A stretch of 62,037 nucleotides of DNA, counting the filler, from Nitrospinae bacterium RIFCSPLOWO2_12_FULL_45_22 (GTDB taxonomy: Bacteria > 2-12-FULL-45-22), in assembly GCA_001803565.1 (NCBI GenBank). It is 6 parts of 6 records of this genome, joined end to end, with 100 filler letters (N's around TTAATTAATTAA, not from the genome) between each part and the next. Parts side by side here need not be neighbours in the genome. Positions count along the whole stretch, not along the records: positions 1 to 25,109 come from MHDQ01000157.1; 5 more parts are not named here. One strand, given 5' to 3'. Position 1 is the stretch's first letter. Every line of letters begins with the position of its first letter. Position numbers and translations under genes: made by a program. The notes below the pieces were generated by a model. The model did not search any database. It was not told the DNA's origin and saw nothing but the letters and a program-made list of their open reading frames with translations. Positions 2,532 through 60,101 of this stretch are shown in pieces.

Positions 2532-3542
2532 TTAAATCCGTAAAATCAGTTTATAGACCGTATTATCTACTGCCCCAAACTTATATTTGTATGACTCATT
2601 CCCCCGAAGAAAGTCCACTCGCTTGAAACCCTTCTCAATACAGTCCTTAACTATTAACCCTATAAGGACAATGCCGGGACTCCAGGGAGAGTAACGGGGT
2701 TCGTATCCAGAGTTATATATATATAAAGTATCAAGGTATTCAAAACCTATTATACCAGCAATCTTCTTGCCATTAGCGGTTAAGAAGGAGAGGTTTAGCC
2801 AACCCCGCTGGGCGAATAATTCTGCCAGGCTTAAAAAATAGGAGCTCATTTCACCACCCATAAAACCAGCCTTCTCTTCCCGACTTGCCCGATGCAGGAT
2901 AAAGAAATCTTCTATCCCTTCCCTAATTTTGTTAGCATCTTTTATCCTAAGCAGGTCTACCTGGGCCTCGCGGTTGATCTTTCTGGTCTTTCTCTCTAAT
3001 TCATGCCGATCCTTCTTTTTTAAGAGCTGCAGATACTCTTCCCAGCTAGTAGGTAAAGATAGTATCGGGCAAGTATCTTCTGGCAACAGTCGTACTTCAA
3101 AACCAAATTTTTCTGCTGGTTTGACAATCCAGGTCTTTGTTAGTGAATCTTCCGGTAGCCCGGATAATTCTATAGTCCCCTCCCCTTTGATCTTCTCTTT
3201 AAGATAATTTAATATGGAGACCAGAACCGGCTCTATCATGGCCTGATCAATTATCGCGTCCCTATAGTCCCAGGTATTTGTGTCTCCTATAAACTCTACC
3301 ACTACCCCATCCCGACTCTGTTTCATAATCAGCGGTACTATCCCTCTCAACCCTCTCGACTCGTCTCTCACAAGGAGAAAGTGGAAATCTTTGGTATACC
3401 AGAAGTGCTTTAACCATAGGTAGTACCATTCCCAGCAGAAGAATATCTTAGGGGCATGGGAGCGGCTCAAGAGTTGATTCCAGGGCTCTTGCATCTGGAT
3501 AAACTCGGTCCATCCCCTCAACTCTTCTATTATCAACTTCAT
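2532..3542 (-). CDS. GNAT N-acetyltransferase, CelD/BcsL-like
   Basis: YNSGYEP, SPGIVL, DFLRGNESYKYKFGA motifs. Confidence 0.8.
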   Translation of the reverse strand: MKLIIEELRGWTEFIQMQEPWNQLLSRSHAPKIFFCWEWYYLWLKHFWYTKDFHFLLVRDESRGLRGIVPLIMKQSRDGVVVEFIGDTNTWDYRDAIIDQAMIEPVLVSILNYLKEKIKGEGTIELSGLPEDSLTKTWIVKPAEKFGFEVRLLPEDTCPILSLPTSWEEYLQLLKKKDRHELERKTRKINREAQVDLLRIKDANKIREGIEDFFILHRASREEKAGFMGGEMSSYFLSLAELFAQRGWLNLSFLTANGKKIAGIIGFEYLDTLYIYNSGYEPRYSPWSPGIVLIGLIVKDCIEKGFKRVDFLRGNESYKYKFGAVDNTVYKLILRI

Positions 3543-3780
3543 TTTACCAGGTAACTATTTGGGTGTGGCTATTTAGTCCAAAAAGCAAATTCCTATGCCC
3601 TTAGAATCTGTCACAAAATAACTTGATCAAAGAAGAGGAGATATGGGGATGGTGGGGATAGGGAGATTTATATATAATTCTTTTTATCTCCAACATCTTC
3701 TTTATCCCCTTATCTCCTTGTCTTACACATTTAACTTGATCAAGTTATTGCGTAGCAATGCCTTAGCTCAGGATAGGGCT

Positions 3781-4365
3781 TTATCTTCTGGGGAGAAATA
3801 TGACTCCCTCATGTCCTTCTTCAATAGGACTCTGTCGGTAAAAAGGTATCCCACATATTCTGCTATATTTTATCACCTGGAATCGTTTAAACCCAGCTTT
3901 CTCTATGCCGCATTGAGAAGGGATATTTTCGCGCAGGACAAAGATCAAAGCCCGGGTATAGCCTTTCTCTTTACCATATTGACAAACATAGGTCAAGATA
4001 TAGGGATAAAGGTTCTTACCCCGGTAGTCTGGTAAAGTAAACGCATCATAGAGATAAAACTCTTCATGCTTAACTTTAATAACCTTATCAATCTCTCCTA
4101 CTTCTGCCTCGGAGAAGGCGACCCAACAATAGGCTGCTATGTGAGATTGGTGTACCGCTATCCAGATCATCTCTCCCCGGCCAAACCGGGATTGGCAAAT
4201 CAATTCATCGGCTATCTCTAATAAATTGAAGCAAGGCGATTCAGAAATATTTCTTAATTGATATACCTGAACATCGAGCTTTGGTTTTATAAGAGGCATA
4301 TCCCCAGAAAGGGGAAAGGCGTATAGATAGAGGCAGTTCGCAGAAAATAACCTCTTGAGTTTCAT
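3781..4365 (-). CDS. GNAT family acetyltransferase
   Basis: FTLPDYRGKNL acetyl-CoA-binding motif A; NIPS..GIEKAGF. Confidence 0.75.
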   Translation of the reverse strand: MKLKRLFSANCLYLYAFPLSGDMPLIKPKLDVQVYQLRNISESPCFNLLEIADELICQSRFGRGEMIWIAVHQSHIAAYCWVAFSEAEVGEIDKVIKVKHEEFYLYDAFTLPDYRGKNLYPYILTYVCQYGKEKGYTRALIFVLRENIPSQCGIEKAGFKRFQVIKYSRICGIPFYRQSPIEEGHEGVIFLPRR

Positions 4366-5422: not shown

Positions 5423-5905
5423 CTATCGGACCAATTCCAGGGCCCCAAAGGGACACCTCATCGCACATGCCCTGCAGTATTCTGGTGGGTCAGCCTTTCT
5501 CTTGCAACGGTATGGATTAACCACATGAATAATACCATCAATTACCTGAAGAACTGACACGCTTTCAGTAAAGGCGGGCATTTCACCTCTGGGCCGGACG
5601 CGGCTCCTTCTCCCCAGGCTGCAAACCATAATACAGTCACCGCATCCCACACATTTTTCTTGCTTAATAAGGTGGCCACTTTCTGCTATATCTGCTTCCT
5701 CTAGCTCTTCGCCAAAATATTCCTTCAGCAGTTCCATAGAACTGCTAAACTCTTCTTTTTGTAAATCCGGACAGTCCGCCAGGGTCTTTTCTCGGCTGAT
5801 GAGTTCAAAGGCAAAGGCCAAACAGGTCTCACAACCACATGCCTTACAGTCTGTACACGGGAGCAATTGATATATTTGTAGAGGATTAATTCTCTCCTGA
5901 GTCAT
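5423..5905 (-). CDS. Fe-S protein: CFeSP/RnfB-type N-terminal [4Fe-4S] domain plus ferredoxin domain (FwdG-like)
   Basis: LPCTDCKACGCETC...CP, then CVGCGDCIMVC and CRACAMRCP. Confidence 0.85.
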   Translation of the reverse strand: MTQERINPLQIYQLLPCTDCKACGCETCLAFAFELISREKTLADCPDLQKEEFSSSMELLKEYFGEELEEADIAESGHLIKQEKCVGCGDCIMVCSLGRRSRVRPRGEMPAFTESVSVLQVIDGIIHVVNPYRCKRKADPPEYCRACAMRCPFGALELVR

Positions 5906-6243
5906 GCTTCCACCACTTCTGCTATGACTTCTATTCGTTTAAAATTAGGTAATTGTGCCTTTACGGGATCATATTCCGTCAATTTATTGATATAAGAACT
6001 CACTGGCACGAAACCAACCCCTGGGGGGCAGTTGGCATCTGCCTTTACCTTCATTACTATGGCACCCATAGAATCACTAAGCCTGATCATATCACCTTCC
6101 GATATAGCCAGTGTCTCTAAATCAGTTGGTGCCATACTTATCTGGCTTGACAGCTCCTGGTAATTAGCTTCACTACCCTCTGTTTGCCTTATTGCCCATT
6201 GGTAAGCATCCCGGTAAGTGACAATCACCAGTTTGATTTTCAT
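5902..6243 (-). CDS. Molybdopterin dinucleotide-binding subunit, FwdD/FmdD-like
   Basis: 113 aa, MAPTDLETLAISEGD..GVGFVP..PNFK; ATGA overlaps with both neighbours. Confidence 0.8.
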   Translation of the reverse strand: MKIKLVIVTYRDAYQWAIRQTEGSEANYQELSSQISMAPTDLETLAISEGDMIRLSDSMGAIVMKVKADANCPPGVGFVPVSSYINKLTEYDPVKAQLPNFKRIEVIAEVVEA

Positions 6244-7460
6244 ACTCCCTCCAGCAGCCGGCTAATAATTTCTTCATCGCTAGGACGATCGGTCTCTTTT
6301 ATAGGACTTAAGGTCACCTCAGTCCCATCCATACGCACTACTCTCCCCCCAGCTTCTATGCCCGAGATAGCGCCCCCGAATACTACGGTAGAATGCATAC
6401 TCGTGGGGGTTATATATGGGTCAAGAGTTATCAGTGATATCCCCCGGTTCAAATTTTTTGCTAAGGAAGCAGGTAAGCTGGAGTATGGGTCTGTTCCTAC
6501 AATCAGGATACAATCAGCCTCCTGGTTGCGTACCTGTTCTAAGAAAGAAAACTGAGGACCATGAGATATGCCATTAGCAAAAGATATTTTGTTAACATGG
6601 CCGGTCTGCTGATATAATAAATGGTTCAAACCCCTCATATTAGTATGGCAGGCCATAGGAATGACTGCCAGGCCTATACCTAGAATGTTCTTTATGGTCT
6701 CAATCAGTTGCTGGAAGAGAGAAAAATCTCCATCTAAAGCATAGGTTAACCCTAAACCCACGAATATAATCGGAAACTGGGACTTTTTTAGGAGCTCCAC
6801 GAAGGCCCGGGCATCTTCTCTTCCTGAGTCCTCTTTTATGACCGTCAAAATGGAGATTATAAAATCTCTATCCTCACCAGGCAACAGTCTAAAGGCATGT
6901 CTACAGCGCCGGCTAAGCTCGGTATCCCTTACATCAACACAACTAAGCCCGGCGGGTTTAGCCCGCTCAAAGGGATAATAAGCAAACCGAGATATGTGTC
7001 TTGGGTGAGAGTGGTAAGGATTGGAACCCCAATAGACGAGCAAATCAGCCTCTTTTAGCTGGGGAAAAGAGCAAGAGGGTAAAGTTCCCGTAAGGATATT
7101 CTCTACTACCGTGCCCTGACAGAAAGAGGAGCAGTCATCTATTGTGGCTCCCAGGGTACGGGAAAGTTCAATAGCCCTGGCCTGGGCTTCCAGGGTAGAA
7201 TTATCCAGGCCAAAGATAAGGGGTTTTTTTGCCTGTCGGAGCAATTGGGTGGCGGTATCAAGGGCTTCTGTTAAGTCTCCTCTCTCTCCCTTTACCAGGC
7301 AGGGTGGATTACGTCTTTCGTTTATATTATGGGCATAAATAAAAGCTGCCCCTTTCCTGCAGGCATTTTCTACCCGGGTGATAACATCTCCTTCCTGCTC
7401 AACTCCAATATCATCACATAGACAGCTACAACCGGTACAAACAAGATTTTTATAGGACAT
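6240..7460 (-). CDS. Formylmethanofuran dehydrogenase subunit B-like Mo/W-pterin protein (divergent active site)
   Basis: CTGCSCLCDD...NACRKG Fe-S motif, SSFCQG metal-ligand Cys, WGSNPYHSHPRH, GIEAGG..RMDG. Confidence 0.88.
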   Translation of the reverse strand: MSYKNLVCTGCSCLCDDIGVEQEGDVITRVENACRKGAAFIYAHNINERRNPPCLVKGERGDLTEALDTATQLLRQAKKPLIFGLDNSTLEAQARAIELSRTLGATIDDCSSFCQGTVVENILTGTLPSCSFPQLKEADLLVYWGSNPYHSHPRHISRFAYYPFERAKPAGLSCVDVRDTELSRRCRHAFRLLPGEDRDFIISILTVIKEDSGREDARAFVELLKKSQFPIIFVGLGLTYALDGDFSLFQQLIETIKNILGIGLAVIPMACHTNMRGLNHLLYQQTGHVNKISFANGISHGPQFSFLEQVRNQEADCILIVGTDPYSSLPASLAKNLNRGISLITLDPYITPTSMHSTVVFGGAISGIEAGGRVVRMDGTEVTLSPIKETDRPSDEEIISRLLEGV

Positions 7461-8179: not shown

Positions 8180-8647
8180 TTATAACGCTTTTATCAACTG
8201 TTCAAGGTTTTGTTGATACTGTTTTAATGAAGCATCGCCTAAAGAGTAATTAGCTTCCTTTATATACACATTACCTAAGGCAACAGTCTCAGCACCCTTG
8301 ACTCCCGAAGTTAGCCCCCGCGCAACTTTGGGACTATAGCCTAAAAATATAAGCAATTCCGGCTTCTCAGTCGTGATGGGTTCTTTCCATTCTGGTCCTC
8401 GGATAAAATCAACTATTTCGGCAGCATACTTTTTTGCTACCTTTTCCACTCCCCGCTCTTTCAAGCCCTTGGCGGTATTGGCCGTAGCTGCTACCGGCAA
8501 TTTTAGCTTCTTAGCGATCTCAGCGGCATAATCCAGTAATGACTTACCATCGAAATTGAGTTCATTACACAACGCCCCGGTCAGGAGTAAGGCCCTCTTT
8601 TTGCTTTTAAGGCAGGTAGCCAATTCAGACGGTCGTTTAGCGCTCAT
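8180..8647 (-). CDS. cdhB: ACDS epsilon subunit (CdhB)-like protein
   Basis: Follows cdhA; KRALLLTG, PVAATA, LLIFLG, ANYSL patterns; RBS GGAGG. Confidence 0.75.
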   Translation of the reverse strand: MSAKRPSELATCLKSKKRALLLTGALCNELNFDGKSLLDYAAEIAKKLKLPVAATANTAKGLKERGVEKVAKKYAAEIVDFIRGPEWKEPITTEKPELLIFLGYSPKVARGLTSGVKGAETVALGNVYIKEANYSLGDASLKQYQQNLEQLIKAL

Positions 8648-8784
8648 ATTTCCTCCCCCTTTAGCTATTCATTTAAATTAATCCGGATACATGTTTTCGC
8701 GGATATTCGCAGAATTTCCGGGCTTGGGGGTCAGGGCTCGGGAAACGGCTGGCTCCTGATCTCTGACCCCTGACAGCCATATGC

Positions 8785-11313
8785 TCAGCTCTTCTTCTCC
8801 TTGACTCCTATCTCATAAGAAGTCTTATAGTTCCTGATCTCTGGATCGGGGAACATCCTGGGAACTCTGGTGGGATAGACCCCTCCCATACAACTAAACT
8901 CATTCTGCATGGTCTCCATATCTACCAGTCGTCCATCGGGATGCTTAGCCCGCTTTAAGTTTAGCCGCTCTACTTCCCAGCCATGCTTGTCTGCTAGCTC
9001 CCTAAGCATCTTGGCCTTATAACGTACCGGGAGTTCCCATGAGGAACGGACAAAGAGAGGCCAATCATCTGGCCACTCACCAAAGGCTGCCAGAGAAAAC
9101 TCTACATAGGTCTCCAACCCAATTAAGCGAAAATCCCTAATAGCTACTGGCCGCTGGCACATGATGGTTACAGCTGTAACCGCCTCTTCGCGGGTCTCTA
9201 CCGGGATAATCATATGCTTAGGTGCTGGTTCAACGGGTCGCTTTTTCCTGGTCCAGCTATCGTAATACCACCACCGCTTCCAGTCCCATTTATTTCCGGG
9301 CAAAAAGCGATGCCAGTCAAAGGCTGACTCTGGACCAACTACTACTGGGCAACCACCCCTGGCCCAGGCTGCTACAATAGGATACATCCTATCTGGCAGC
9401 GCACCCCACACCAACAAAGGAGGTGAGACAAGGTTACCATATATATCCGCCGTCTCAGCAAAGTTACCATAATGAGAAGCGCCTGCACCCGTCCGGGGCC
9501 ATTTCATAGCCTGATCCAAAATATGAACACAGGCAGCACAATCTCCAGTGTTGATAAGATTCCTTAGATTAGCCTCGGCGCCAAACTCGTCAAAGATATA
9601 TTTCTTGGTCTTTTCATTAAAGTGACGGGCTACCTCTCCAGCGGCACAGCCAGCGACAAAGGTAATAAAATTACGCGCGGTCAATTCATAAGCTATCCAG
9701 CCAAGGTCTTCTTCATGCTTGGCATCACCGCACCCTAAAAGGTGACAAATACCTGGAGTATTACCCCACATGGAGCTAAAGGCCCAGGAGGAGGTTTCTA
9801 CCCTTGGTAAAGGCCCCCGACCCGGCCGGAGCTTAAACTTATCCCCCGGTGCTCGTTTCTCCATGGAGGCTACGATTAAGTCCAACAACGGGATATTTTC
9901 TGGGCAGATTTTGACACAGGCCCCACATCCAAAACACCCCTTCTCTACTTCCGCCAGGGCCTTAATACCCTCCTTAGCCACCTGCTGGACTGCCTTACTC
10001 AACAGAAGGCTATTGGGGCAGTTACTGAAGCAAAGATCACAATCTTCCCGGCATTTCTTGGCCTCGGCCTTGGCCTTCTCTTCAGATAGCCGATAATCTC
10101 CTTTCCGTTTGACTTGCTGGAGAACCTTGAGGGCTACCTCCGCTGCCTTCTCCGGCAACCTTATCCAGGCCCCTGGAGCACCAGCCACTAAATCCTTCAC
10201 AATATCATCCACAAAGCTATCAGTCCGATCCGGCAACCCGATATTCTTATCCCGGCTGACCCATATAACCCGGGTCCCTACCCGTTTGGTATCCTCCAGA
10301 ATATCCAGATTCATACAAGAACTGCCCCCTACCAACACATCAGATATACCGTAGCGTAATATCTTCCTGGCCTTGGTCATAGGGGCCAATGGGCGGACCC
10401 TCTCATAAAAACGGGCCAGATCATCTCCTGCTGGTCCAATACCGCATACCTCAACCTTTTCGGTCAGCCCTTTCTCCTTCAGTTGATTAGCTACCAGGTA
10501 AGCCAGGAGGAAGGTGTCCCCCATAAAAGTAATCACTGGCTTTCCGGGCTCTACATTCCCCAGACCGCCTACTACGTTTACCTCTGGCCAGTCAATCATC
10601 TCTGATACCTCATGGTCAGAGGCGTTGGTCAGGCCAAAAAGGCTCATCTTTATTAACTCGATAACATCTTTTCCGATCATGAGCATGGAGCCGGCATGAA
10701 AAACCATCCCCTCCAGCTCAATGGCATCGGTACCAGTAAAGCTAGCAGAGGAGAGTTTAACTAGTTGGGCTTCTGCATAAGCCAGGGCCCTATCCAAATC
10801 AGCCAGGTTCTGTCCACCCATGGGTATGCAGGTAAAAAGGCCAATGTGGCTTAGGTCTGAGGCATCATGATGCGCACCCCAGGAAACCTCTTTCTCTCTA
10901 CCGAACACCTTAATAGCATAGTCCAATAGCTCTCGCGAATGGACCATCTGGGTCGAACAACCCCGACATGCCTTGCGGAGACTGAGGCGGGCCTGGTACC
11001 CCTCGAATTCTAATCCACAGACTCCTTTACCAGAGCTGAGGTTACATGGCCCTAAGGGGCAATCGGTACAGGTCTCTACGGTATTGCAATATAAGGGGGT
11101 ATACCTATCTAAAAGGTGACTATCCCACTCAGAAACATCAGCCTGATCCGTAAAAGGGAATATCCGCGTATCAAACTGTTGGAATCGGTTCTCCATCCAA
11201 TCATTCTCAACTGCCCAGAGGACTATATCCTCTACCCCCCGAATATCCCGACAGACCTTAGTAATATCTACTTCACTACTACCCAGAACAGTCTTTGTCT
11301 TTTTATCTCCCAT
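8785..11313 (-). CDS. cdhA: Archaeal-type CO dehydrogenase alpha subunit (CdhA)-like protein with remodelled C-cluster
   Basis: WDSHLLDRYTP, CxxCxxGPC...CG B-cluster, two ferredoxin-type clusters (CREDCDLCFSNCP, CFGCGACVKICP), PGRGP, LGC, AGC, GDC, WGA, EPAPKH, ELP. Confidence 0.9.
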   Translation of the reverse strand: MGDKKTKTVLGSSEVDITKVCRDIRGVEDIVLWAVENDWMENRFQQFDTRIFPFTDQADVSEWDSHLLDRYTPLYCNTVETCTDCPLGPCNLSSGKGVCGLEFEGYQARLSLRKACRGCSTQMVHSRELLDYAIKVFGREKEVSWGAHHDASDLSHIGLFTCIPMGGQNLADLDRALAYAEAQLVKLSSASFTGTDAIELEGMVFHAGSMLMIGKDVIELIKMSLFGLTNASDHEVSEMIDWPEVNVVGGLGNVEPGKPVITFMGDTFLLAYLVANQLKEKGLTEKVEVCGIGPAGDDLARFYERVRPLAPMTKARKILRYGISDVLVGGSSCMNLDILEDTKRVGTRVIWVSRDKNIGLPDRTDSFVDDIVKDLVAGAPGAWIRLPEKAAEVALKVLQQVKRKGDYRLSEEKAKAEAKKCREDCDLCFSNCPNSLLLSKAVQQVAKEGIKALAEVEKGCFGCGACVKICPENIPLLDLIVASMEKRAPGDKFKLRPGRGPLPRVETSSWAFSSMWGNTPGICHLLGCGDAKHEEDLGWIAYELTARNFITFVAGCAAGEVARHFNEKTKKYIFDEFGAEANLRNLINTGDCAACVHILDQAMKWPRTGAGASHYGNFAETADIYGNLVSPPLLVWGALPDRMYPIVAAWARGGCPVVVGPESAFDWHRFLPGNKWDWKRWWYYDSWTRKKRPVEPAPKHMIIPVETREEAVTAVTIMCQRPVAIRDFRLIGLETYVEFSLAAFGEWPDDWPLFVRSSWELPVRYKAKMLRELADKHGWEVERLNLKRAKHPDGRLVDMETMQNEFSCMGGVYPTRVPRMFPDPEIRNYKTSYEIGVKEKKS

Positions 11314-14154: not shown

Positions 14155-14202
14155 ATGCAAGGCTACAACGATTTAACCTAATGACTAATGACGGTCACTC
14201 TA

Positions 14203-14423
14203 GTAACTGTTCAGCCACGAAGTAACACGAAGGAATTCTATTAGAGACTAAGAGATTAGGAGACTTAGGCAGAGGATTCTAGGGGCTAAGGGTTCTAGCG
14301 ATTCTACCCTTGAATCCCAGACCCCTATAAAGAGAGATTATAGTCTCCCACTCTCTATAAATCTCTTAGTCTTAGTCTCAGATACTTGGGAAAACTTAGC
14401 GTCCCTGGTGGCTGATTAATTAC
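14203..14423. repeat. Nested palindromic MITE-like element
   Basis: Ends GTAACTGTTCAGCCAC / GTGGCTGATTAATTAC enclosing GAGACTAAGAGATT / AATCTCTTAGTC arms. Confidence 0.65.
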
Positions 14424-14446
14424 AAAAATTAAAATTGATGCAGGGT

Positions 14447-14477
14447 GAGAAAGGGAGGAACAAGCCCTCCCTTTCTC
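14447..14477 (-). terminator. Strong hairpin right after the cdhC-like gene (terminator or mRNA stabiliser)
   Basis: GAGAAAGGGAGG-N7-CCTCCCTTTCTC perfect 12-bp stem; no immediate U-tract. Confidence 0.55.
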
Positions 14478-14483
14478 TGCATA

Positions 14484-15887
14484 TTATTTGGGAATTTCCC
14501 TGGTCTCATCTGGCCAGTCGTGCCCAGGTAAAGGGATCTTTACGGGGGCTGGTTTACCATCCTTCCAACGCTTCTCTACCACCGGGTGTTTTTTTTCCCG
14601 GAGGAAATTCTCTAAGTCCTTAGGAGTGATACAATCCTCCTCGGTAGCGATCTTATCGTAGACTTCTTCGGGAATGGCATCGGCAATCTCTACCTTCAGG
14701 TCTTTGGGCATCCACACTATCCGGTTCCAACCACCATCTCCCTGGAGGAACTTGGGTGCCTTCGTGCCATATATAGATATCCCTTTAAAGCCATGATTCT
14801 GTACCCCTCCGCTCATTAATCCCGCAATCTTAGAGAAGGGTAATCCGATGGGGGTTTGCCCCATATAGCGCCTTATTGCAATTCCTATCCCATCAACCTG
14901 AGGGATATAGAAGCTTACCGCCTCGAATCACCCTCAGTTAGTGGTGACATATTTGATGCTACTATGCAGATGAAAGATCTTGTGCCTATGGTCTGATCTC
15001 TCATAAATGGCATCATCTACCCCTGTGAACCGACCTGCTATGGGATCAATGGTCTCCCCTTTAGGGAGTTCAAAGATATAGCCATGGGGGTCTATCGCAT
15101 GAATGGCCTTGCAGGTATAAAAGCTTAGAACCCCACAGTAGGGGACGATTGCTGGGGTGATGATACAGGCATGGTTGGGGGCAATCATCTTGCAGAGGGT
15201 GCAGCCATAGAACAGGTCTACATCCTCATCTGCAATAGCCGCATGCTTGGCCATCAGGGCCTCCCATTTCGGCTTAGTCTCTTCCAATATTGACTCTATA
15301 GTCTTCACCCCACCGATCTCGGGAGTACCCAATACCCATTTTACTTCTACCGCCTCAACAATCGGGGCTGAGGTAAGGACACTTGCCCTTATAGACTGGG
15401 ACAGCTTTTTAAAACTCAGCCTGGGGGCTACTTCCTTACTTATCCTTGTCCAGATGGTATCCCGGGCGCCGATCATACCGACACCTTCCATAAACATCAA
15501 CCCCATAAACATACCCCGGGCGGCAAACTCCTCATGATCCTCTGTTAGCTCCGGTCCCCAGAGCTTGGCATGCAAAGAGAAGGGAAGAGAAGTTTCCGGT
15601 GGTATCTCATCCAGTTCCGGGCCAATTACCTCTACCCGGCCATCAACTATCTCATTCGGATCGTTAACTACCTCAGCATAGAGAAAGCTCTTATAATTAT
15701 GCTTAGGGCCGCCCAGTTCCGCATGCCAATAGCCTTTTCGGATTTCTCCGATATACCTGGGGCCAATCCCTACATCCTCCAGTCCATCCCACAATTTATC
15801 CAAGTCTGTCTCTAGCTGGTAAACTTTCCCTGGCGGCAACTTTGTCTTGTACCAGGGCTTAAGCTCGGTTTTCACTTCCGTAGCCAT
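14484..15887 (-). CDS. cdhC: Archaeal-type acetyl-CoA synthase (CdhC/ACDS beta)-like protein, 467 aa, predicted selenoprotein with U318-G319-U320
   Basis: Track ORFs 14934..15887 and 14484..14864 are in one frame; read-through gives YVTTN-TGA-G-TGA-FEAVSFYIPQVDGIGIAIRRYMGQTPIGLPFSKIAG, matching PMTSCGCFE..PxG..F..LAG; Fe4S4 ligands FYGCTLC..PNHAC..CG intact. Confidence 0.92.
14882..14912 (-). promoter_or_regulatory. Bacterial SECIS-like hairpin
   Basis: mRNA UUCU-A-UAUCCC-UCA-[GGU]-UGA-U-GGGAUA-GGAA; G-starting apical loop 29 and 35 nt downstream of the two UGA codons. Confidence 0.75.
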
Positions 15888-16036
15888 AATTAAAACCCTC
15901 CTTTCATCCTAGAATTTCCGATCATCAGCTCTATATATCCCTATTATAGCGTGCTATCACCTCCTTTTCTCCTGCTATAAAATACTCCTTCTGCTGTCAG
16001 CATCCAGGGTATTACCTTAAATAATCTCTCCCTCTA

Positions 16037-16828
16037 TTAACGAGTGGCTCGCTCGCTGATCTTTTCACAAACCTGCACCACGGCTATAGAAGCGGGAGAG
16101 TCCTCTGGTAGTTCAATGATAGGCTTACCTAAGGCATCAGCCAGGGCTATCTGGGGATCATATGGGACATAAGCCGTTATTTCAAGGCCATTTTCCTGTA
16201 CCATACGTTCTAGCCCGGGCCTGGTTTCATCGGTAACCTTGTTTGCTATCAACATAACCTCAGAAAAATTGACCACTAATTCTTTAGCCAGATCCTTCAC
16301 CCTCTTAGCGGTCAAAAGTCCATTCCAGGTGGCATCACTAACCGCTATCATCAAGTCAACATCTCGGGTAGTACGACGGCTAAGATGCTCCAGTCCAGCC
16401 TCACAATCAATCACAGTAAAGTCATAACTATTAGCCTTGGCATCTATTACCTGGCGCAGGATATTATTAACCGGGCAGTAACACCCTTCCCCTTCTGGAC
16501 GCCCCATAACGAGGAGATCAATATTGTTATCCCCTTCTTCGACTATCTCGTGCAAAGCCGTTTGAAAAGCCCCTCCTTTATTAGCCGCCTCTGGGCTACG
16601 GGCCGGGGCATGCATTATGGTCTCCCGGATATCACCCACACTCTTTCTCACCGTCATACCCAGAGCATGAGGGAGATTAGAGTCGGGATCGGCATCAATA
16701 GCCAATACATATCCTTTCCTGGACAAACACCTAATCAATAGAGCGGATAAGCCAGTTTTACCAACTCCACCTTTTCCAGAAACAGCTATAGTAAATCCCT
16801 TATTAACCAAGCTACCAGAAAACTCCAT
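16037..16828 (-). CDS. cooC: CooC/AcsF nickel-insertion ATPase
   Basis: GKGGVGKT, DADPDSNL, GEGCYCP, DCEAGLEHLSR. Confidence 0.92.
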   Translation of the reverse strand: MEFSGSLVNKGFTIAVSGKGGVGKTGLSALLIRCLSRKGYVLAIDADPDSNLPHALGMTVRKSVGDIRETIMHAPARSPEAANKGGAFQTALHEIVEEGDNNIDLLVMGRPEGEGCYCPVNNILRQVIDAKANSYDFTVIDCEAGLEHLSRRTTRDVDLMIAVSDATWNGLLTAKRVKDLAKELVVNFSEVMLIANKVTDETRPGLERMVQENGLEITAYVPYDPQIALADALGKPIIELPEDSPASIAVVQVCEKISERATR

Positions 16829-16829
16829 A

Positions 16830-17870
16830 CTAGTTCGCCTCCGGCAATAATCCCTTCACCATCTCCTCAATAAGACTTATGGGATCATCATAATACTTTG
16901 ACTCAGGAGAAGGTTTTATCCTACTCCCCAGAGCAGATATAGCCATTTTTCTAATACCTTCTACCTCAGCCTTTTTGCTTCCATTCAGTAAGGCAAGGGT
17001 CTGGACTTTTTCATAGAGAGATAGGCCGGCCCTAACGCTCGCTCCTTGATCAAGCTCCTTACCCCAGGGTTCTTCCCTGGTAGCCCTCACTAGTTTAACA
17101 ATAGCATCCACAATCTTTCCCGGGAGTTCCACCCCATCAAATTTTAGGCCAAATTTCATCAATATGTCTCGCTCTCGTTCTGGTGTCTCGGGATAGCCCA
17201 TCTTAATCACATCAAACCGATCCAGGAGTACATCGGAAAGCTCTTCTACGCCGGCATGTTCCCTTGGGTTCATGGTAGCAATCATGATAAAATTTGCTGG
17301 ATAATCAACATCATACGGACCAATGGTAGCGCTCCCCTCTTCCAGTACCTGGAGTAAGGCATTCTGTAACTTTTCCGGTACCCGGTTCAACTCATCAAAG
17401 AACACTACCCCTCGATTACCTTTGAGTAGTTTTCCTGGGGTAAAGGCCCGATAATCCTGGGGACCATACTTGAATGCCTGGGTAGGATCAATGTCGCCCA
17501 GGAGATCTTCGGCCGTCAGGTCTGGAGACCCCTGGATCCGGACAAACCTCTTTACACCTGGCACTTCCTCACCCTCTATCTTCTCCCCTTTAGTTAGTTT
17601 CAACCTACACATAGGGCAAACCGGGTTCCCCGGCTCGCAGTGATAAAGGCAGCCCTTTACAGACATCAATGCGGGTAAGGTTGATGCCACATGTTTCGTA
17701 AGGGTAGTCTTGCCGATACCCGGTGGCCCTTCTATTAAAATATGATGGCCGGCCAGGATAGAGGCCAAAATTTTCTCCTTGGCTTCCTCCTGACCTACAA
17801 TAATATCTAATGGGTCCTTCTTCTTCTGAACCGCACTAAGAATAGCCTCCTTCATTCCTTCAATCAGCAT
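16830..17870 (-). CDS. AAA+ ATPase, ChlI/MoxR-like
   Basis: GPPGIGKT, RIQGSPDLT, FFDELNR, ATMNP, LLDRF; CLYHCEPGNPVCPMC insert. Confidence 0.88.
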   Translation of the reverse strand: MLIEGMKEAILSAVQKKKDPLDIIVGQEEAKEKILASILAGHHILIEGPPGIGKTTLTKHVASTLPALMSVKGCLYHCEPGNPVCPMCRLKLTKGEKIEGEEVPGVKRFVRIQGSPDLTAEDLLGDIDPTQAFKYGPQDYRAFTPGKLLKGNRGVVFFDELNRVPEKLQNALLQVLEEGSATIGPYDVDYPANFIMIATMNPREHAGVEELSDVLLDRFDVIKMGYPETPERERDILMKFGLKFDGVELPGKIVDAIVKLVRATREEPWGKELDQGASVRAGLSLYEKVQTLALLNGSKKAEVEGIRKMAISALGSRIKPSPESKYYDDPISLIEEMVKGLLPEAN

Positions 17871-49211: not shown

Positions 49212-50561
49212 ATGGTAGAGACAACAGTTTCTAGGACTAATAGCGTAGTAGAGAGCAAACATACTAAGAGCGGCGAAGAGACTATCCAGAAAGCTGACGG
49301 TCAAGCTCTCCATATCGGGGAATTGAAAGAGATGAGTATTCAAAAATTGCTGGAGATAGCCAAAGCGCTTGATATACCCGGGAGCAGTAATCTAAAAAAG
49401 CAAGAACTGATCTTCCAAATCTTAAAAGCCCAAACAGAAAAGAGTGGTTTGATCTTTGCTGAAGGTGTGTTAGAAACCTTACCGGAAGGGTTTGGGTTTC
49501 TCCGCGCCCCAGATTATAACTACTTGCCTGGCCCGGATGATATTTATATCTCTCCTTCGCAAATCAGGAAGTTTGATCTACGGACGGGCGATACCGTTTC
49601 AGGCCAGATCCGTCCCCCCAAAGAAGGGGAGAAGTATTTTGCTTTGCTTAAAGTAGAGGCAGTAAATTTCGAGTCGCCCGAGTTAGCGGCAGGCAAGCTC
49701 CTTTTTGATAACCTGACACCCCTGTATCCCAACAAGCACATCAAACTAGAAGTAGGGCCGGACAACTTATGTGCCCGGGTAATGGACCTGCTGACCCCTA
49801 TTGGCAAAGGGCAGCGGGGCCTCGTAGTTGCCCCTCCCAGGACGGGCAAGACCATGCTCCTACAGACCATTGCCAATTCCATAACCCGTAATCACCCAGA
49901 AATTTACCTGATTGTCTTATTGATAGATGAGAGGCCGGAAGAAGTCACTGATATGGAGCGATCAGTAAAGGGCGAGGTAATAAGCTCTACCTTTGATGAG
50001 CCGGCCCATAGGCATATCCAGGTAGCAGAGATTGTCTTAGAAAAGGCGAAGCGCTTAACGGAACACAAAAGAGATGTAGTAATATTGTTAGATAGTCTTA
50101 CCCGGCTAGCCCGGGCATATAACACTATGGCCCCACCTAGCGGTAAGGTCTTGTCTGGTGGGATAGACTCCAATGCCTTGCAGCGCCCTAAGAGGTTCTT
50201 TGGAGCTGCACGGAATCTGGAGGAAGGGGGTAGCCTAACCATTATTGCAACTGCTTTGATTGATACTGGTAGTCGGATGGATGATGTTATTTTTGAAGAA
50301 TTCAAAGGGACAGGCAATATGGAGCTTAATCTGGATCGCCGTCTGGTGGATAGACGGATATTTCCCGCAATTGATCTTGCCCGCTCAGGTACGAGAAAGG
50401 AAGAGCTATTGCTGCCACAGGATGAACTCCATAAGATATGGGTCCTGAGAAAAGTTTTGACCCCTCTAAATTTGGTGGAATGTATGGAACTATTATTAGA
50501 AAAACTGGCTAAGACCAAATCCAATAAAGAATTCCTAAATTCAATGAATAGTTTAGATTAA
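49212..50561 (+). CDS. rho: Transcription termination factor Rho
   Basis: [43 protein letters not shown]. Confidence 0.98.
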
Positions 50562-56589: not shown

Positions 56590-57879
56590 ATGGTATACAG
56601 TGCTACCCCATTAAAAATCTGGGATGAATGTAAAACTTTGACCCTGAATTATTATCGCGCGATGTTTACCGCCCGTGAAGAAGGAAGGAAGCTGGCCTGG
56701 ATGGGGGCCAGCGCCCCACCCGAGCTGGTGCGGGTATTTGATATCGTCCCGGTAGCCGGGGAGCCTTATTCTGCTACCAGCAATTTCAGGCCCAATTTAA
56801 CCATGAAATTCATGCAGGCAGTAGAAAAGGCCGGCTTCCCCAGGGATTTATGCTGCTACACCCGTACCTTCCTGGGCTCGATCCTGACCCAGGAGAGCCC
56901 TTTTGGTGAGTTGCCCAGCCCGGATTTTATCATCAGTGTCAAATGGGATTGTACCACCCATATCCAGTGGTGGCATAATGCTGCCCGGCTTACCGGAAAA
57001 CCCTTTTTTATCATTGAGTCATCCCCTTGTGAAGAAGGGATCAAAGAATACCACATAGATTATTTTGTTACTCAATTGAAGCGACTGATCGGGTTCCTGG
57101 AAGAGATGACCGGGAAGAAGCTGGATGAAGAGAAGTTGATCCAGAATGTCCATTATGCTTATCAAGCTACAGAAATCTGGGACGATATTCTGCAGCTCTG
57201 CCAGGCTATCCCCAGCCCATTGAATTATAAAAGCTTCCTGACATTAATGGTCCCTGCTATCCTGATGCGTGGCACTCGCACTGCGGTAGAATATTATCAG
57301 AGGCTAAGGGATGAACTAGCCGGGCGGGTTAGAGAAGGCATTAGTGGTATTCCGGAAGAAAAATACCGGCTTATCTGGATAAACCTGCCCCTATGGTATA
57401 ACATGGCGCTCTTAAAAGAGCTGGATCAGGCTGGAGCGGCGGTTGTAGCTTCTCCCTATACCGCTATGTGGGGAAATATCTTTACCAAAACCCGCCATAA
57501 ACCGTCTTCTTATGACCCGAAGATGTATGAATATAAACCTCCAACTAATACTGACGAGGCCCTAAGAGAAATAGCAAAATCATGGATGGGACGCACCTCA
57601 TTCAGTGACTTTAAGTCCCAAAAGAATCTATTAAAATGGATGATCGAGGGATTTAAGATAGATGGGGTGATTTCCCATGACAACCGGGGCTGCAAGGTAT
57701 TCCCCTTAGGTCAGATGGACTTGATGAAATGGATTCAGGACCAGTATGATATGCCTATAATGATCTTTGAGGCCAACCATGGTGATCCGAGCAACTTCTC
57801 TGAAGGTCAGATCAGCACCCGGCTCCAGGCATTCCTGGAGGTATTGCAACAAAGGCCCCAAAGGTGTCAAATAAGATAA
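56590..57879 (+). CDS. 2-hydroxyacyl-CoA dehydratase / benzoyl-CoA reductase subunit (BcrB/BzdO/HgdA-like)
   Basis: GEPY, RDLCCY, DCTTH..W, DGVI.H.NRGC, TRLQAFLE. Confidence 0.85.
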   Translation: MVYSATPLKIWDECKTLTLNYYRAMFTAREEGRKLAWMGASAPPELVRVFDIVPVAGEPYSATSNFRPNLTMKFMQAVEKAGFPRDLCCYTRTFLGSILTQESPFGELPSPDFIISVKWDCTTHIQWWHNAARLTGKPFFIIESSPCEEGIKEYHIDYFVTQLKRLIGFLEEMTGKKLDEEKLIQNVHYAYQATEIWDDILQLCQAIPSPLNYKSFLTLMVPAILMRGTRTAVEYYQRLRDELAGRVREGISGIPEEKYRLIWINLPLWYNMALLKELDQAGAAVVASPYTAMWGNIFTKTRHKPSSYDPKMYEYKPPTNTDEALREIAKSWMGRTSFSDFKSQKNLLKWMIEGFKIDGVISHDNRGCKVFPLGQMDLMKWIQDQYDMPIMIFEANHGDPSNFSEGQISTRLQAFLEVLQQRPQRCQIR

Positions 57880-57884
57880 TTTGA

Positions 57885-58100
57885 AATTGTTTAGCCAACT
57901 AAAGTCTTCTAAAAATAAGCCGCAAAAATGCGCAAAAAGAACAAAAATAATATGAACCACAAAGCCACAAAGAACACTAAGAAAAAAAGGGTGGCATCCC
58001 AAAATAACCATTAACCAATTAAATTCTTTGTGTCCTTTGTGACTTTGTGGTTATGAACTTAACCAGAATTTCTTTGTGCCTTTTTGTGGCTAAACTATTA
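57885..58100. repeat. Palindromic CACAAAG-type repeat element; 5' arm shared with 50629-50712
   Basis: ATTGTTTAGCCAA.TAAAGTCTTCTAAAA.T..GCCGCAAA in both; closes with TTTGTGGCTAAACTATTAC. Confidence 0.75.
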
Positions 58101-58106
58101 CCTAAA

Positions 58107-60101
58107 ATGAATATTACACAATATCGCCCGATTGTATTTCCTTTCACGGCCCTGGTGGGGCAGGAGCGGCTGAGATATGCCTTGCTCCTCAATGCCATAA
58201 ACCCCCGCTTAGCGGGGTTATTGATCCAGGGCGAGAAAGGCACAGCTAAATCAACCGCAGTGCGGGCCCTGGCCGACTTGTTGCCCGAAATAGAAGTAGT
58301 AAAAGACTGTGTATTCAGTTGTCATCCCTACCTGCCTAACAAGATGTGTGATGACTGCTTGAAACGCTTCAAGGATAGCGGCTCATTACCCATTGCCCGG
58401 CGCAAGATAAGGATAGTAGAACTACCCGTCAGCGCCACAGAAGACCGGATAGTAGGGAGTATAGATTTTGAATATTCTTTGAAGACCGGCAGTCGTCGCT
58501 TAGAGCCCGGTATCCTGGCCTATGCTAACCGGGGGATATTATATGTGGATGAGATAAACCTGCTACCGGATAGCCTGGCAGACCTCCTCCTGGATGCTGC
58601 CGCCCTGGGGATTAATATTATTGAACGAGAAGGAATATCCTTTAAGCACCCCGCGGAATTTATCCTGATCGGCTCCATGAACCCCGAAGAAGGAGAGCTA
58701 AGGCCGCAGCTCCTGGACCGATTTGGGCTATGTATCACGGTAGATAGCTTACCTGACCCTATCCAGCGCCTGGCGGTTATTAGAAGGCAGTTGGAGTTTG
58801 AACAAGGCCCCTGGGCCTTTATCCAGCAATGGCAGTCCGAGCAATTCCACTTACAGAACAGGATTTGGCAAGCCCAAACCCTCTTACCCCAGGTAGAAAT
58901 ATCCGCTGAGCTGCTAGAGATGATCTCTGAGATATGCCTGAGCAATAATACCGCTGGCCATCGGGCCGATATCCTGATGTGTGCTACTGCCAAGACTATA
59001 GCAGCGTTTGAAGGTCGCCAGCAAGTAATTTTAGAAGACCTGGCCCGGGCAGCGGAATATGTCCTGCTACACCGGGGACGAATACCAATGCCAGTCCAGG
59101 GAGGCATTCCGGTACCAGTTCCTTCTGTCTCGCAGGAGGATAAAGGTTCAGATACGATGGTTCCTACCAACCTGGGTGAACAGGATGAAGCAGAGGATCA
59201 GGGGGAGAAAGAAGAACCACCAGAGACCCCTGATTCTATCTTTCCCCTGGGTAACCCTTTCCATATCCGCTCTATTGAGGTCCACCGGGATCGCTTTTAT
59301 CGGCAGCGGTATGGCCGGCGGAGTCCTAGCAAGACCCTGGCCAAGAGTGGGCGTTATGTCCGCAGCACGTCGGTTCGCAGGAATGACGATCTAGCCTTGG
59401 ATGCCACTATCCGTACCGCGGCACCCCACCAATCCAGCCGCGAAAAAAAGGGCCTGGCTATCGCTATTGAGACGTCTGATATAAGAGAAAAGGTAAGGGA
59501 ACGAAAGATAGGAAATCTCTTACTCTTTGTGGTAGATGCCAGTGGTTCTATGGGCACCATATTAATGAGCGAGACCAAGGGGGCCATCTTTTCTTTGCTG
59601 CTAGATGCCTATAAACGCCGGGATAAGGTGGGCCTGGTAGCCTTCCGCGAGGATTCCGCCGAAATATTGCTACCGCCTACCAATAGTATTGAATTAGCTA
59701 AAAAACTCCTGGAAGAGTTACCTACAGGCGGAAAAACCCCCCTGGTACATGGCCTGGTAACCGGTTACCAATTGATCAAGAGCCATCTCAGAAAAGAGAG
59801 CCAGAGCCTACCTATAATGATTCTGATCTCCGATTGCCGACCCAATGTCCCCTGGCACGAAACGCCTTATTATGATTACCGGTATAACGAGGTGGGTTAC
59901 CCTAAAGTGCTGGAGGAAGTCCTCTCTATGGCCCAGTATATTCAGTCTGAAGGCCAGATTAAATCCTTAGTCATAGAAGTAGATGATCGGTATGATCATA
60001 TGTCTAAAGGCCGGGATATTGCGGAGGCTATGGGCGCCCAATATTTCCGCATCCAGGACTTACAGGCCAAAGGTATTGTGCGACTCCTCCGCAACCGCTA
60101 A
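58107..60101 (+). CDS. Mg/Co-chelatase ChlI-ChlD-like AAA+ / acidic linker / vWA protein
   Basis: [55 protein letters not shown]. Confidence 0.9.

Follow-up and report, generated by a model that had tools for sequence, protein, structure and literature searches.

Two UGA codons at the nickel-binding motif of a bacterial acetyl-CoA synthase point to a double-selenocysteine A-cluster

Introduction

In a stretch of 62,037 nucleotides (nt) from Nitrospinae bacterium RIFCSPLOWO2_12_FULL_45_22 (GCA_001803565.1), the gene for acetyl-CoA synthase (ACS), cdhC, has UGA at both codons where homologues encode the cysteine (Cys) residues that bridge the two nickels of the A-cluster. The whole stretch is called the window below. 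The same pair of UGA codons recurs in relatives, and comparison of these sequences makes it very probable that they represent a family of double-selenocysteine ACS selenoproteins, whose two nickels would be bridged by selenolates. We further consider it likely that a natural selenolate-bridged Ni-Ni A-cluster is present in a widespread ACS family of subsurface bacteria (Chloroflexota, Syntrophaceae and relatives), whose UGAs would be decoded with the help of two alternating folds of the selenocysteine insertion sequence (SECIS) type.

A single cdhC frame with two UGA codons

The cdhC gene is a single frame of 467 codons on the minus strand (window 15887..14484), which runs from an ATG (15887-15885) to a TAA (14486-14484). 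It is broken in frame solely by two TGA codons, at 14936-14934 (UGA1) and 14930-14928 (UGA2), with GGG in between. Translation table 11 divides it into two open reading frames (ORFs), 14934..15887 (317 amino acids) and 14484..14864 (126 amino acids). When TGA is read as selenocysteine (Sec, U), the product has 467 residues and reads ...IKYVTTN-U318-G319-U320-FEAVSFYIPQVDG... around the site, and the tryptic region predicted across it is YVTTN-U-G-U-FEAVSFYIPQVDGIGIAIR.

With C placed at both UGA positions, the read-through protein scores 388.2 bits with TIGR00316 (cdhC; cut-off 355.95) and 395 bits with NF003379 (cut-off 372), and both PF03598 and PF19436 of Pfam are above their cut-offs. Residues 38-441 are covered by matches to the solved chains of the Methanosarcina ACDS beta subunit (9c0s; E 2.6e-82) and of Carboxydothermus ACS (9fr0; E 8.5e-74). 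In the alignment, both TGA codons fall on the Cys pair of the (T/S)CGCFE motif of the solved ACS chains. The nickel tripeptide thus retains its position, its Gly and the trailing FE, and both of its Cys codons are UGA. The residues C229, C232, C241 and C251 are invariant in an alignment of 23 sequences and match Cys ligands of the solved chains, C232 standing at the position of the Cys that links to the proximal Ni. According to the available text of PMC10299331, the proximal Ni is bound by Cys595, Cys597 and the cluster-bridging Cys509, and the distal Ni by Cys595, Cys597 and the backbone amides of Cys595-Gly596-Cys597. The Ni-binding domain lies wholly in the 3' third of cdhC. On every feature that a sequence can test the protein is an ACS, the one exception being the chemical identity of residues 318 and 320.

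An earlier note on this DNA had read the two ORFs as one frame with its two TGAs on the Ni-bridging Cys pair, the Fe4S4 ligands being intact and homology continuing to the natural end of the gene. Translation and the alignments bear out this description, and its last point is further supported by purifying selection past UGA2, as described in the following section.

UGA and Cys forms among relatives

The DNA of relatives comprises 159 loci, 79 from species-representative genomes and 80 from metagenomes. Three forms are found at the site, here called UGU, UGC and CGC for UGA-Gly-UGA, UGA-Gly-Cys and Cys-Gly-Cys at the Ni motif. In the species-representative set, TGA-GGN-TGA is present in L001 and L003, both from metagenome-assembled genomes (MAGs) of Chloroflexota, and in L002, from a Syntrophaceae MAG. 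TGA-GGG-TGC is present in L015 (from the same genome as L001) and L021 (Dehalococcoidales). TGY-GGN-TGY is present in 73 loci, and the motif was not seen in L076. Three regular-expression hits in L017, L022 and L036, which lie outside cdhC, were dropped. In the metagenome set, L080 is the window's own sequence, four loci (L083, L084, L085 and L115) have TGA-GGN-TGA, L106 has TGA-GGG-TGC and 73 sites are CGC; the motif was not seen in L107 and L109.

These loci yield seven distinct double-UGA sequences: the window (= L080), L001, L002 (= L085), L003, L083, L084 and L115. Their mutual DNA identity is 67-78% over 600 nt, except for the pair L003/L083 (91%). The distinct UGA-Gly-Cys sequences are three (L015, L021 and L106). 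At the 136-137 distinct homologous sites of the Cys form, TGY stands where the window has its two UGAs. Judged from these alignments, the two TGAs of cdhC are far beyond chance: both codons are also TGA in six further distinct sequences, at a distance of 22-30% of bases from the window.

The frame past UGA2 is open in all UGA forms, with no indels and no further stops, and the encoded protein is conserved. Over the 105 codons after UGA2, the ratio of nonsynonymous to synonymous rates (dN/dS) is 0.064-0.151 in nine of 15 pairs; the synonymous rate (dS) is saturated in the other six. Purifying selection on the 3' third of cdhC is as strong as on the 5' part, and by this measure the gene is translated past its UGAs. 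The earlier note would have given up its reading had no homologue kept TGA and the downstream half been decaying; the relatives do keep TGA, and the dN/dS values are those of a maintained coding sequence.

The phylogeny was examined in a tree of 67 rows, which holds the window, 44 sites from 40 of the 159 loci, 15 database proteins that end at TTN, the residues just before UGA1, and seven full-length database proteins; other loci were omitted to keep the tree small. All seven UGU rows and all 15 TTN-ending rows are united in a clade of 28 rows with support 100/99, the remainder of which consists of six dispersed Cys forms (P0004+P0006, L081, L082, P0010 and P0075). The UGC rows, three in number, group apart from the UGU clade, in a clade of their own with support 100/100. 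The dispersed Cys forms look like the outcome of repeated Sec/Cys exchange, as far as the tree of these sequences can tell.

Some observations concern the distribution of the gene more generally. The Chloroflexota genome G001 has two types of cdhC, a UGU type in a MoxR/CooC/VWA operon (L001) and a UGC type with cdhA directly after it (L015). In several Chloroflexota loci, namely L006, L007, L017, L022 and L091, two tandem cdhC-cdhA pairs lie about 4.3 kb apart, and the tandem copies fall in two distinct, well-supported subclades. As to the affiliation of the window, its rho gene (49212-50561) is 70% identical to that of the Syntrophaceae genome G002 and 57-58% to those of two Chloroflexota genomes; the identity is flat at 67-75% in 149 matching genomes of the 151 in the class of G002.

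RNA folds at the UGA codons

Two conserved folds within the coding sequence are specific to the UGA forms and qualify as candidate SECIS elements. Their positions, and those of the other features of the window, are given in Table 1.

The first is fold A, a long stem-loop that is a candidate for serving UGA1. It is made by pairing of CAACUGAGGG, which contains UGA1, with CCCUCA(G)GUUG, and has at its apex hairpin 1, of the general form GAGGC-GGUA(A)-GCYUY. The fold emerged once four extra upstream bases were included in folding. In the window it has an energy of -21.8 kcal/mol (z = -2.99). Energy minimisation returns fold A for the window, L002, L084 and L021, and a looser version of it for L015 and L106. 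When the pair formed by the third base of codon 318 is disregarded, 8 or 9 of the 9 pairs of the lower stem can form in all seven UGU sequences, in all three UGC sequences and in three of 137 Cys forms (L081, L082 and L116).

The second fold, hairpin 2 (fold B), is a candidate for serving UGA2 and coincides with the most conserved nucleotides of the UGU sequences. Comparison of six non-redundant UGU sequences gives 98 degenerate codons at which the amino acid never changes, and in 16 of these the codon itself is invariant. Six of the 16 are consecutive (+10 to +15, encoding I-P-Q-V-D-G). The longest run of invariant nucleotides is 20 nt (14906-14887), the runner-up being 8 nt. The stem of hairpin 2 begins 21 nt past UGA2, and is fully paired (8/8) in 7/7 UGU sequences, in 1/3 UGC sequences and in two of 136 distinct Cys forms (L081 and L082). 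The distribution of the two folds follows that of the codons: fold A tracks UGA1 in both UGA clades, and hairpin 2 tracks UGA2. Because 11 nt are common to both, fold A and hairpin 2 are mutually exclusive.

An outer helix (14931-14925 with 14884-14878) was considered as well; it has 5-7 of its 7 pairs in UGU sequences, but 6 of 7 in 19 of 136 Cys forms, and was dropped. An Rfam scan of the 62-kb window returned no family at gathering score, and no curated Rfam SECIS model matched by which fold A or hairpin 2 could be scored; a bacterial SECIS model is possibly absent from that library.

Selenocysteine machinery of relatives

The genes for Sec synthesis and insertion were sought in four genomes that carry UGA forms (G001-G004). 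A tRNA-Sec is present in all four, with scores of 74.7-78.4 bits (gathering score 47), and has a UCA anticodon, an acceptor stem of 8 bp, a T stem of 5 bp and G73. The genes selA and selD are above cut-off in all four, and selB in three. Every one of the selD genes has an in-frame TGA of its own. These selD codons (L172-L175) lie in the motif G-A-G-*-A-x-K and are followed, about 12-13 nt downstream, by a hairpin of the GGUCC...GGACC type.

In G002, two further tRNA genes of 98-99 nt lie on contig C14 (L176 2388-2486 and 8654-8751). They are tRNA-Sec-like tRNA-Cys genes with a GCA anticodon and U73, and a long ORF follows each (2618-4063; 8783-10003, with an open end). They share the contig with corrinoid-protein genes and resemble the selC* tRNAs in the available text of PMC5389517.

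Evidence against the double-Sec reading

Several results weigh against the double-Sec reading, most of them concerning the RNA folds. Hairpin 1 was rejected as a stand-alone SECIS since it is unspecific, with 5/5 pairs in 32 of 136 Cys forms. In the seven UGU sequences, a structure composed of the outer helix, hairpin 1 and hairpin 2 did not exceed the shuffle control, 249 of 500 shuffles reaching the observed score. Just one pair changes on both sides among these seven sequences, and across 12 sequences there is one compensatory pair, located in the Cys form L082. Covariation is near nil because the helices do not vary. The support from RNA, as read from these alignments, is conservation and specificity, not covariation. 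The folding z-scores are modest: -3.0 in the window, -3.1 in L002 and -0.6 to -1.25 in the other five UGU sequences. Hairpin 2 also lies farther from its UGA than do the selD hairpins of G001-G004, the latter distance being estimated by eye.

The Cys forms L081 and L082, which lie within the UGU clade, retain both folds, and the folds alone are therefore no proof of recoding. Either these two changed from Sec to Cys very recently, or the folds play some additional part. The folds are at 3135-3200 in L081 and at 4942-5007 in L082, and the compensatory change in hairpin 2 of L082 is from C-G to U-A.

The remaining points concern the machinery. The 62-kb window itself has no tRNA or Rfam hit, and the Sec machinery is seen in the genomes of relatives only. 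In G001, selB is represented by an EF-Tu-like match below cut-off and by a C-terminal fragment on the contig that bears tRNA-Sec. Of ten genomes in which all cdhC genes are Cys forms, seven have selA as well; no selA turned up in G155 and G156, to which L004 and L005 of the Cys-form sister group belong, or in G157, the source of L006, these MAGs being incomplete. The association of selA with the UGA codons is one-sided, compatible with the double-Sec reading and not discriminating.

Alternative explanations

The alternative that fares best, although we think it unlikely, is that UGA is recoded as Cys by a selC* tRNA-Cys(UCA), maybe with a second SelB, so that the A-cluster would be all-sulfur. 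The selC* tRNAs of the deltaproteobacterial groups Syntrophobacterales and Desulfobacterales do decode UGA as Cys in tests, according to the available text of PMC5389517, and the genome of L002, G002, has the two Sec-like tRNA-Cys genes with U73 described above. However, the anticodon of both is GCA, not UCA, and the UCA hits above the Rfam cut-off in G001-G004 are all canonical tRNA-Sec with G73 and the 8/5 fold. Moreover, all four genomes retain selA and selD, the makers of Sec, and two UGAs with two folds would offer no obvious benefit for the insertion of Cys when relatives with TGY exist.

It is more doubtful still that UGA1 is mainly a stop, in which case the chief product would be a protein of 317 residues that lacks the Ni site, with the full-length form rare or produced only when selenium is ample. 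In bacterial Sec decoding, two successive insertions are expected to be inefficient, which speaks for such an outcome, as do the prediction of the 317-residue form by gene callers and the presence in G001 of a UGC paralogue beside the UGU one. Against it, the 3' third is under as strong a constraint as the 5' part and encodes the entire Ni-binding domain, which a protein needs to be an ACS. A stop or selenium gate at UGA1 supplements the double-Sec reading and does not replace it.

There is very little chance that cdhC is a pseudogene or a split gene, or that its TGAs are errors of sequencing or assembly, even though its table-11 frame is broken twice. At least 75% of the gene's sampled words are found in 20 sequencing runs from 17 studies, and contigs of four of the runs (X8, X9, X12 and X14, from four studies), none of which is flagged as a possible source of the window sequence, span 14928-14936 with 0 differences. 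The X12 contig, from a run labelled metatranscriptomic but flagged as 'probably DNA', was used for its letters and not for expression; it has 1314 nt (14494-15807) and 0 differences from the window. The independent contigs have TGA at this site, and the letters are identical in L080 as well. Furthermore, TGA stands at both codons in six distinct sequences whose synonymous sites are saturated, other stops and indels are absent, and dN/dS downstream is as low as given above (0.06-0.15). Among the 120 best database homologues, 15 (61-93% identity, 312-317 amino acids) end exactly at ...TTN, and the same stop codon has therefore been met in many more assemblies. These truncated proteins confirm the earlier note in its view that annotation pipelines would split the gene, and its statement that TGA is an ordinary stop in the neighbouring genes proved correct too.

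That all UGA is read as an amino acid (genetic code 4 or 25) can be dismissed, since nothing but the two codons themselves speaks for it, TGA terminates nine of the 54 window ORFs of at least 150 amino acids, including cdhA (8787-8785), the AAA+VWA gene (11877-11875) and trpB (21735-21733), at the ends that their family models lead one to expect, and no second long frame with an in-frame TGA and long flanks was found in the window beyond cdhC.

A proposed mechanism

In the double-Sec reading, the gene would produce a full-length, functional CdhC of the archaeal type, Sec being inserted at both of its UGA codons, which are 6 nt apart. From the solved, homologous Cys enzyme one would expect Sec318 and Sec320 to be the two chalcogenolate ligands of the distal Ni, beside two backbone amides, and to form bridges to the proximal Ni, the catalytic one. 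This gives a predicted site of [Fe4S4]-Cys232-Ni(proximal)-(mu-Sec318)(mu-Sec320)-Ni(distal). We infer the identity of the inserted residue, the Ni-Se geometry and the assignment of each fold to its UGA from these comparisons. Recoding would be steered by RNA structure within the coding sequence. Fold A, common to all UGA forms, may act as a classical SECIS that serves UGA1. When the ribosome melts the lower stem of fold A, the freed 3' arm could refold as hairpin 2, with its GGU loop and bulged U. Hairpin 2, which is invariant only in the double-UGA clade, would then serve UGA2.

The operon and neighbouring genes

The gene order MoxR-CooC-cdhC-AAA+VWA-cdhA-cdhB is found in the window and in all UGU loci that extend far enough to reveal it, and also in the Cys-form relatives L081, L082, L004 and L005 (Table 1). 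The MoxR-type and AAA+VWA proteins may, together with the CooC-type ATPase, make up a metal-insertion machine for the A-cluster. A corrinoid-protein subunit (PF03599) was not found in the window; such subunits are present in 4/4 of the genomes G001-G004, on other contigs.

Table 1. Positions of cdhC, its codons and folds, and its neighbours in the window
Feature	Position	Strand	Basis or remark
cdhC / acetyl-CoA synthase (ACDS beta), 467 codons through two UGA	14484..15887	minus	single frame, TIGR00316 score, solved-chain matches
Ribosome-binding site GGAGG	15897..15901	minus	9 nt upstream of cdhC ATG, read directly
Codons of Fe4S4 ligands C229, C232, C241, C251 (C-x2-C-x8-C-x9-C)	15135..15203	minus	invariant columns, solved-chain alignment
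UGA1, residue 318, aligned with first Cys of Cys-Gly-Cys (Cys595, PMC10299331 numbering)	14934..14936	minus	
GGG, motif Gly319	14931..14933	minus	GGN across homologues
UGA2, residue 320, aligned with second motif Cys (Cys597)	14928..14930	minus	
Fold A, long stem-loop, candidate SECIS for UGA1	14894..14940	minus	minimum-energy fold and lower-stem counts
Hairpin 1, GAGGC-GGUAA-GCUUC, apical part of fold A	14910..14924	minus	stem begins 9 nt past UGA1
Hairpin 2 (fold B), AUCCCUCA-GGU-UGA(U)GGGAU, candidate SECIS for UGA2	14887..14906	minus	20-nt invariant run
MoxR-type AAA ATPase	16830-17870	minus	upstream of cdhC
CooC/CbiA-type P-loop ATPase	16037-16828	minus	upstream of cdhC
AAA+VWA chelatase-like, 761 amino acids	11875-14160	minus	downstream of cdhC
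cdhA	8785-11313	minus	downstream of cdhC
cdhB	8180-8647	minus	downstream of cdhC
Unnamed gene, 181 amino acids	7467-8012	minus	directly after cdhB
FwdB-like	6240-7460	minus	TIGR03129 302 bits, below cut-off 328
FwdD-like	5902-6243	minus	downstream operon
Small FeS protein, resembles N-terminus of CdhE or RnfB	5423-5905	minus	downstream operon

The FwdB- and FwdD-like genes extend the operon with a module that resembles formylmethanofuran dehydrogenase. Such a module tied to carbon monoxide dehydrogenase (CODH)/ACS, in a cluster without a corrinoid protein, is unusual. The genes that follow cdhB here, from the unnamed one to that of the FeS protein, also accompany cdhA and cdhC in loci of Chloroflexota and Desulfobacterales (L007, L022, L016 and L013).

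Between cdhC and the VWA gene there is a gap of 320 nt (14161-14483). By eye, a strong inverted repeat, AGAAAGGGAGG...CCTCCCTTTCT, is seen right after the cdhC stop; it was not called in the terminator scan, as it lacks a following run of T. A promoter-like site (14154-14125, 11/12 matches) lies within the start of the VWA ORF. Elsewhere in the window, on the plus strand (56590-60101), a gene resembling benzoyl-CoA reductase/2-hydroxyacyl-CoA dehydratase is followed by a second chelatase-like gene, which scores 718 bits with TIGR02442, below the cut-off of 779.

Relation to known systems

The canonical ACS and ACDS beta proteins (CdhC of Methanosarcina, 9c0s; AcsB of Carboxydothermus and Moorella, 9fr0, 1ru3 and 1oao) belong to the same family as the window protein and have the same domain order, the four Fe4S4 Cys and the x-Gly-x Ni motif followed by FE. 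They also share the operon with cdhA, cdhB and a CooC-type ATPase. The window gene differs in having UGA for both Ni-bridging Cys codons and in belonging to a bacterial clade, of Chloroflexota and Syntrophaceae MAGs, of the short archaeal-type form. It differs also in its surroundings, the genes of its clade being flanked by MoxR and AAA+VWA genes, and then by FwdB/FwdD-like genes.

In E. coli fdhF, the SECIS is a stem-loop located inside the coding frame; it begins at the UGA, which takes part in the lower stem, and has G and U in the apical loop. Fold A has the same layout. Unlike fdhF, the system described here has a pair of UGAs at a distance of 6 nt and, in the double-UGA clade specifically, a further hairpin that cannot form together with fold A.

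In function, the closest analogue is the [NiFeSe] hydrogenase, where Sec replaces one terminal Cys ligand of the catalytic Ni. The two enzymes are not homologous, and the cdhC product would differ in that two Sec would bridge two Ni. A Sec-containing hydrogenase subclass is mentioned in the available text of a 2026 selenoproteome review (PMC13188914). As far as their available text goes, this review and one of 2022 (PMC9312934) list an HgcA/CdhE-like corrinoid protein, a relative of the gamma subunit, as a selenoprotein. It too is selenoprotein kin of CODH/ACS subunits, but has one Sec, in a CU motif, and is not the A-cluster subunit. The available text of the 2026 review also describes a bacterial UxxU protein of the FmdB family with two Sec within a few codons (PMC13188914). 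It shares the closely spaced pair of Sec with the cdhC product, whose U-G-U motif is predicted to ligate metals and not to form a redox pair.

The beta subunit is not listed in the main text of either review, and Sec in ACS beta is not mentioned in the available text of PMC13188914, PMC9312934, PMC5736913, PMC9751293, PMC8318568 and PMC4959059. No description of it was found in the searchable literature; supplementary candidate lists could hold one. Both the enzyme and the recoding system are known; their combination and the resulting metal-site chemistry were not found described in that literature.

Significance

ACS is the key enzyme of the Wood-Ljungdahl pathway, in which it makes acetyl-CoA from CO, and its Ni-Ni-Fe4S4 A-cluster is a long-studied organometallic catalyst. 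If the double-Sec reading is true, the cdhC product would, to our knowledge, be preceded by just one other class of Ni-Se enzyme and by no other biological metal cluster in which selenocysteines act as bridges. Selenolates in place of both bridging thiolates should alter the redox potential and the nucleophilicity of the proximal Ni, and possibly the oxygen tolerance of the enzyme; the Sec and Cys forms of [NiFe] hydrogenases hint at the kind of difference to be expected. The closely related Cys forms L081 and L082 (about 70% identical) provide a natural comparison for the effect of selenium on Ni-methyl and Ni-CO chemistry. For the study of recoding, the close spacing of the two UGAs (6 nt) and their mutually exclusive folds offer a compact setting in which to ask how SelB serves neighbouring codons.

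The finding also bears on how these bacteria are described from their genomes. Because gene callers split or shorten such genes, as is the case for the 15 truncated homologues, reconstructions of pathways from MAGs may score ACS as broken. If the double-Sec reading holds, a central enzyme of carbon fixation would join the selenoproteome, and the acetyl-CoA pathway in groundwater and sediment bacteria would be tied to the supply of selenium.

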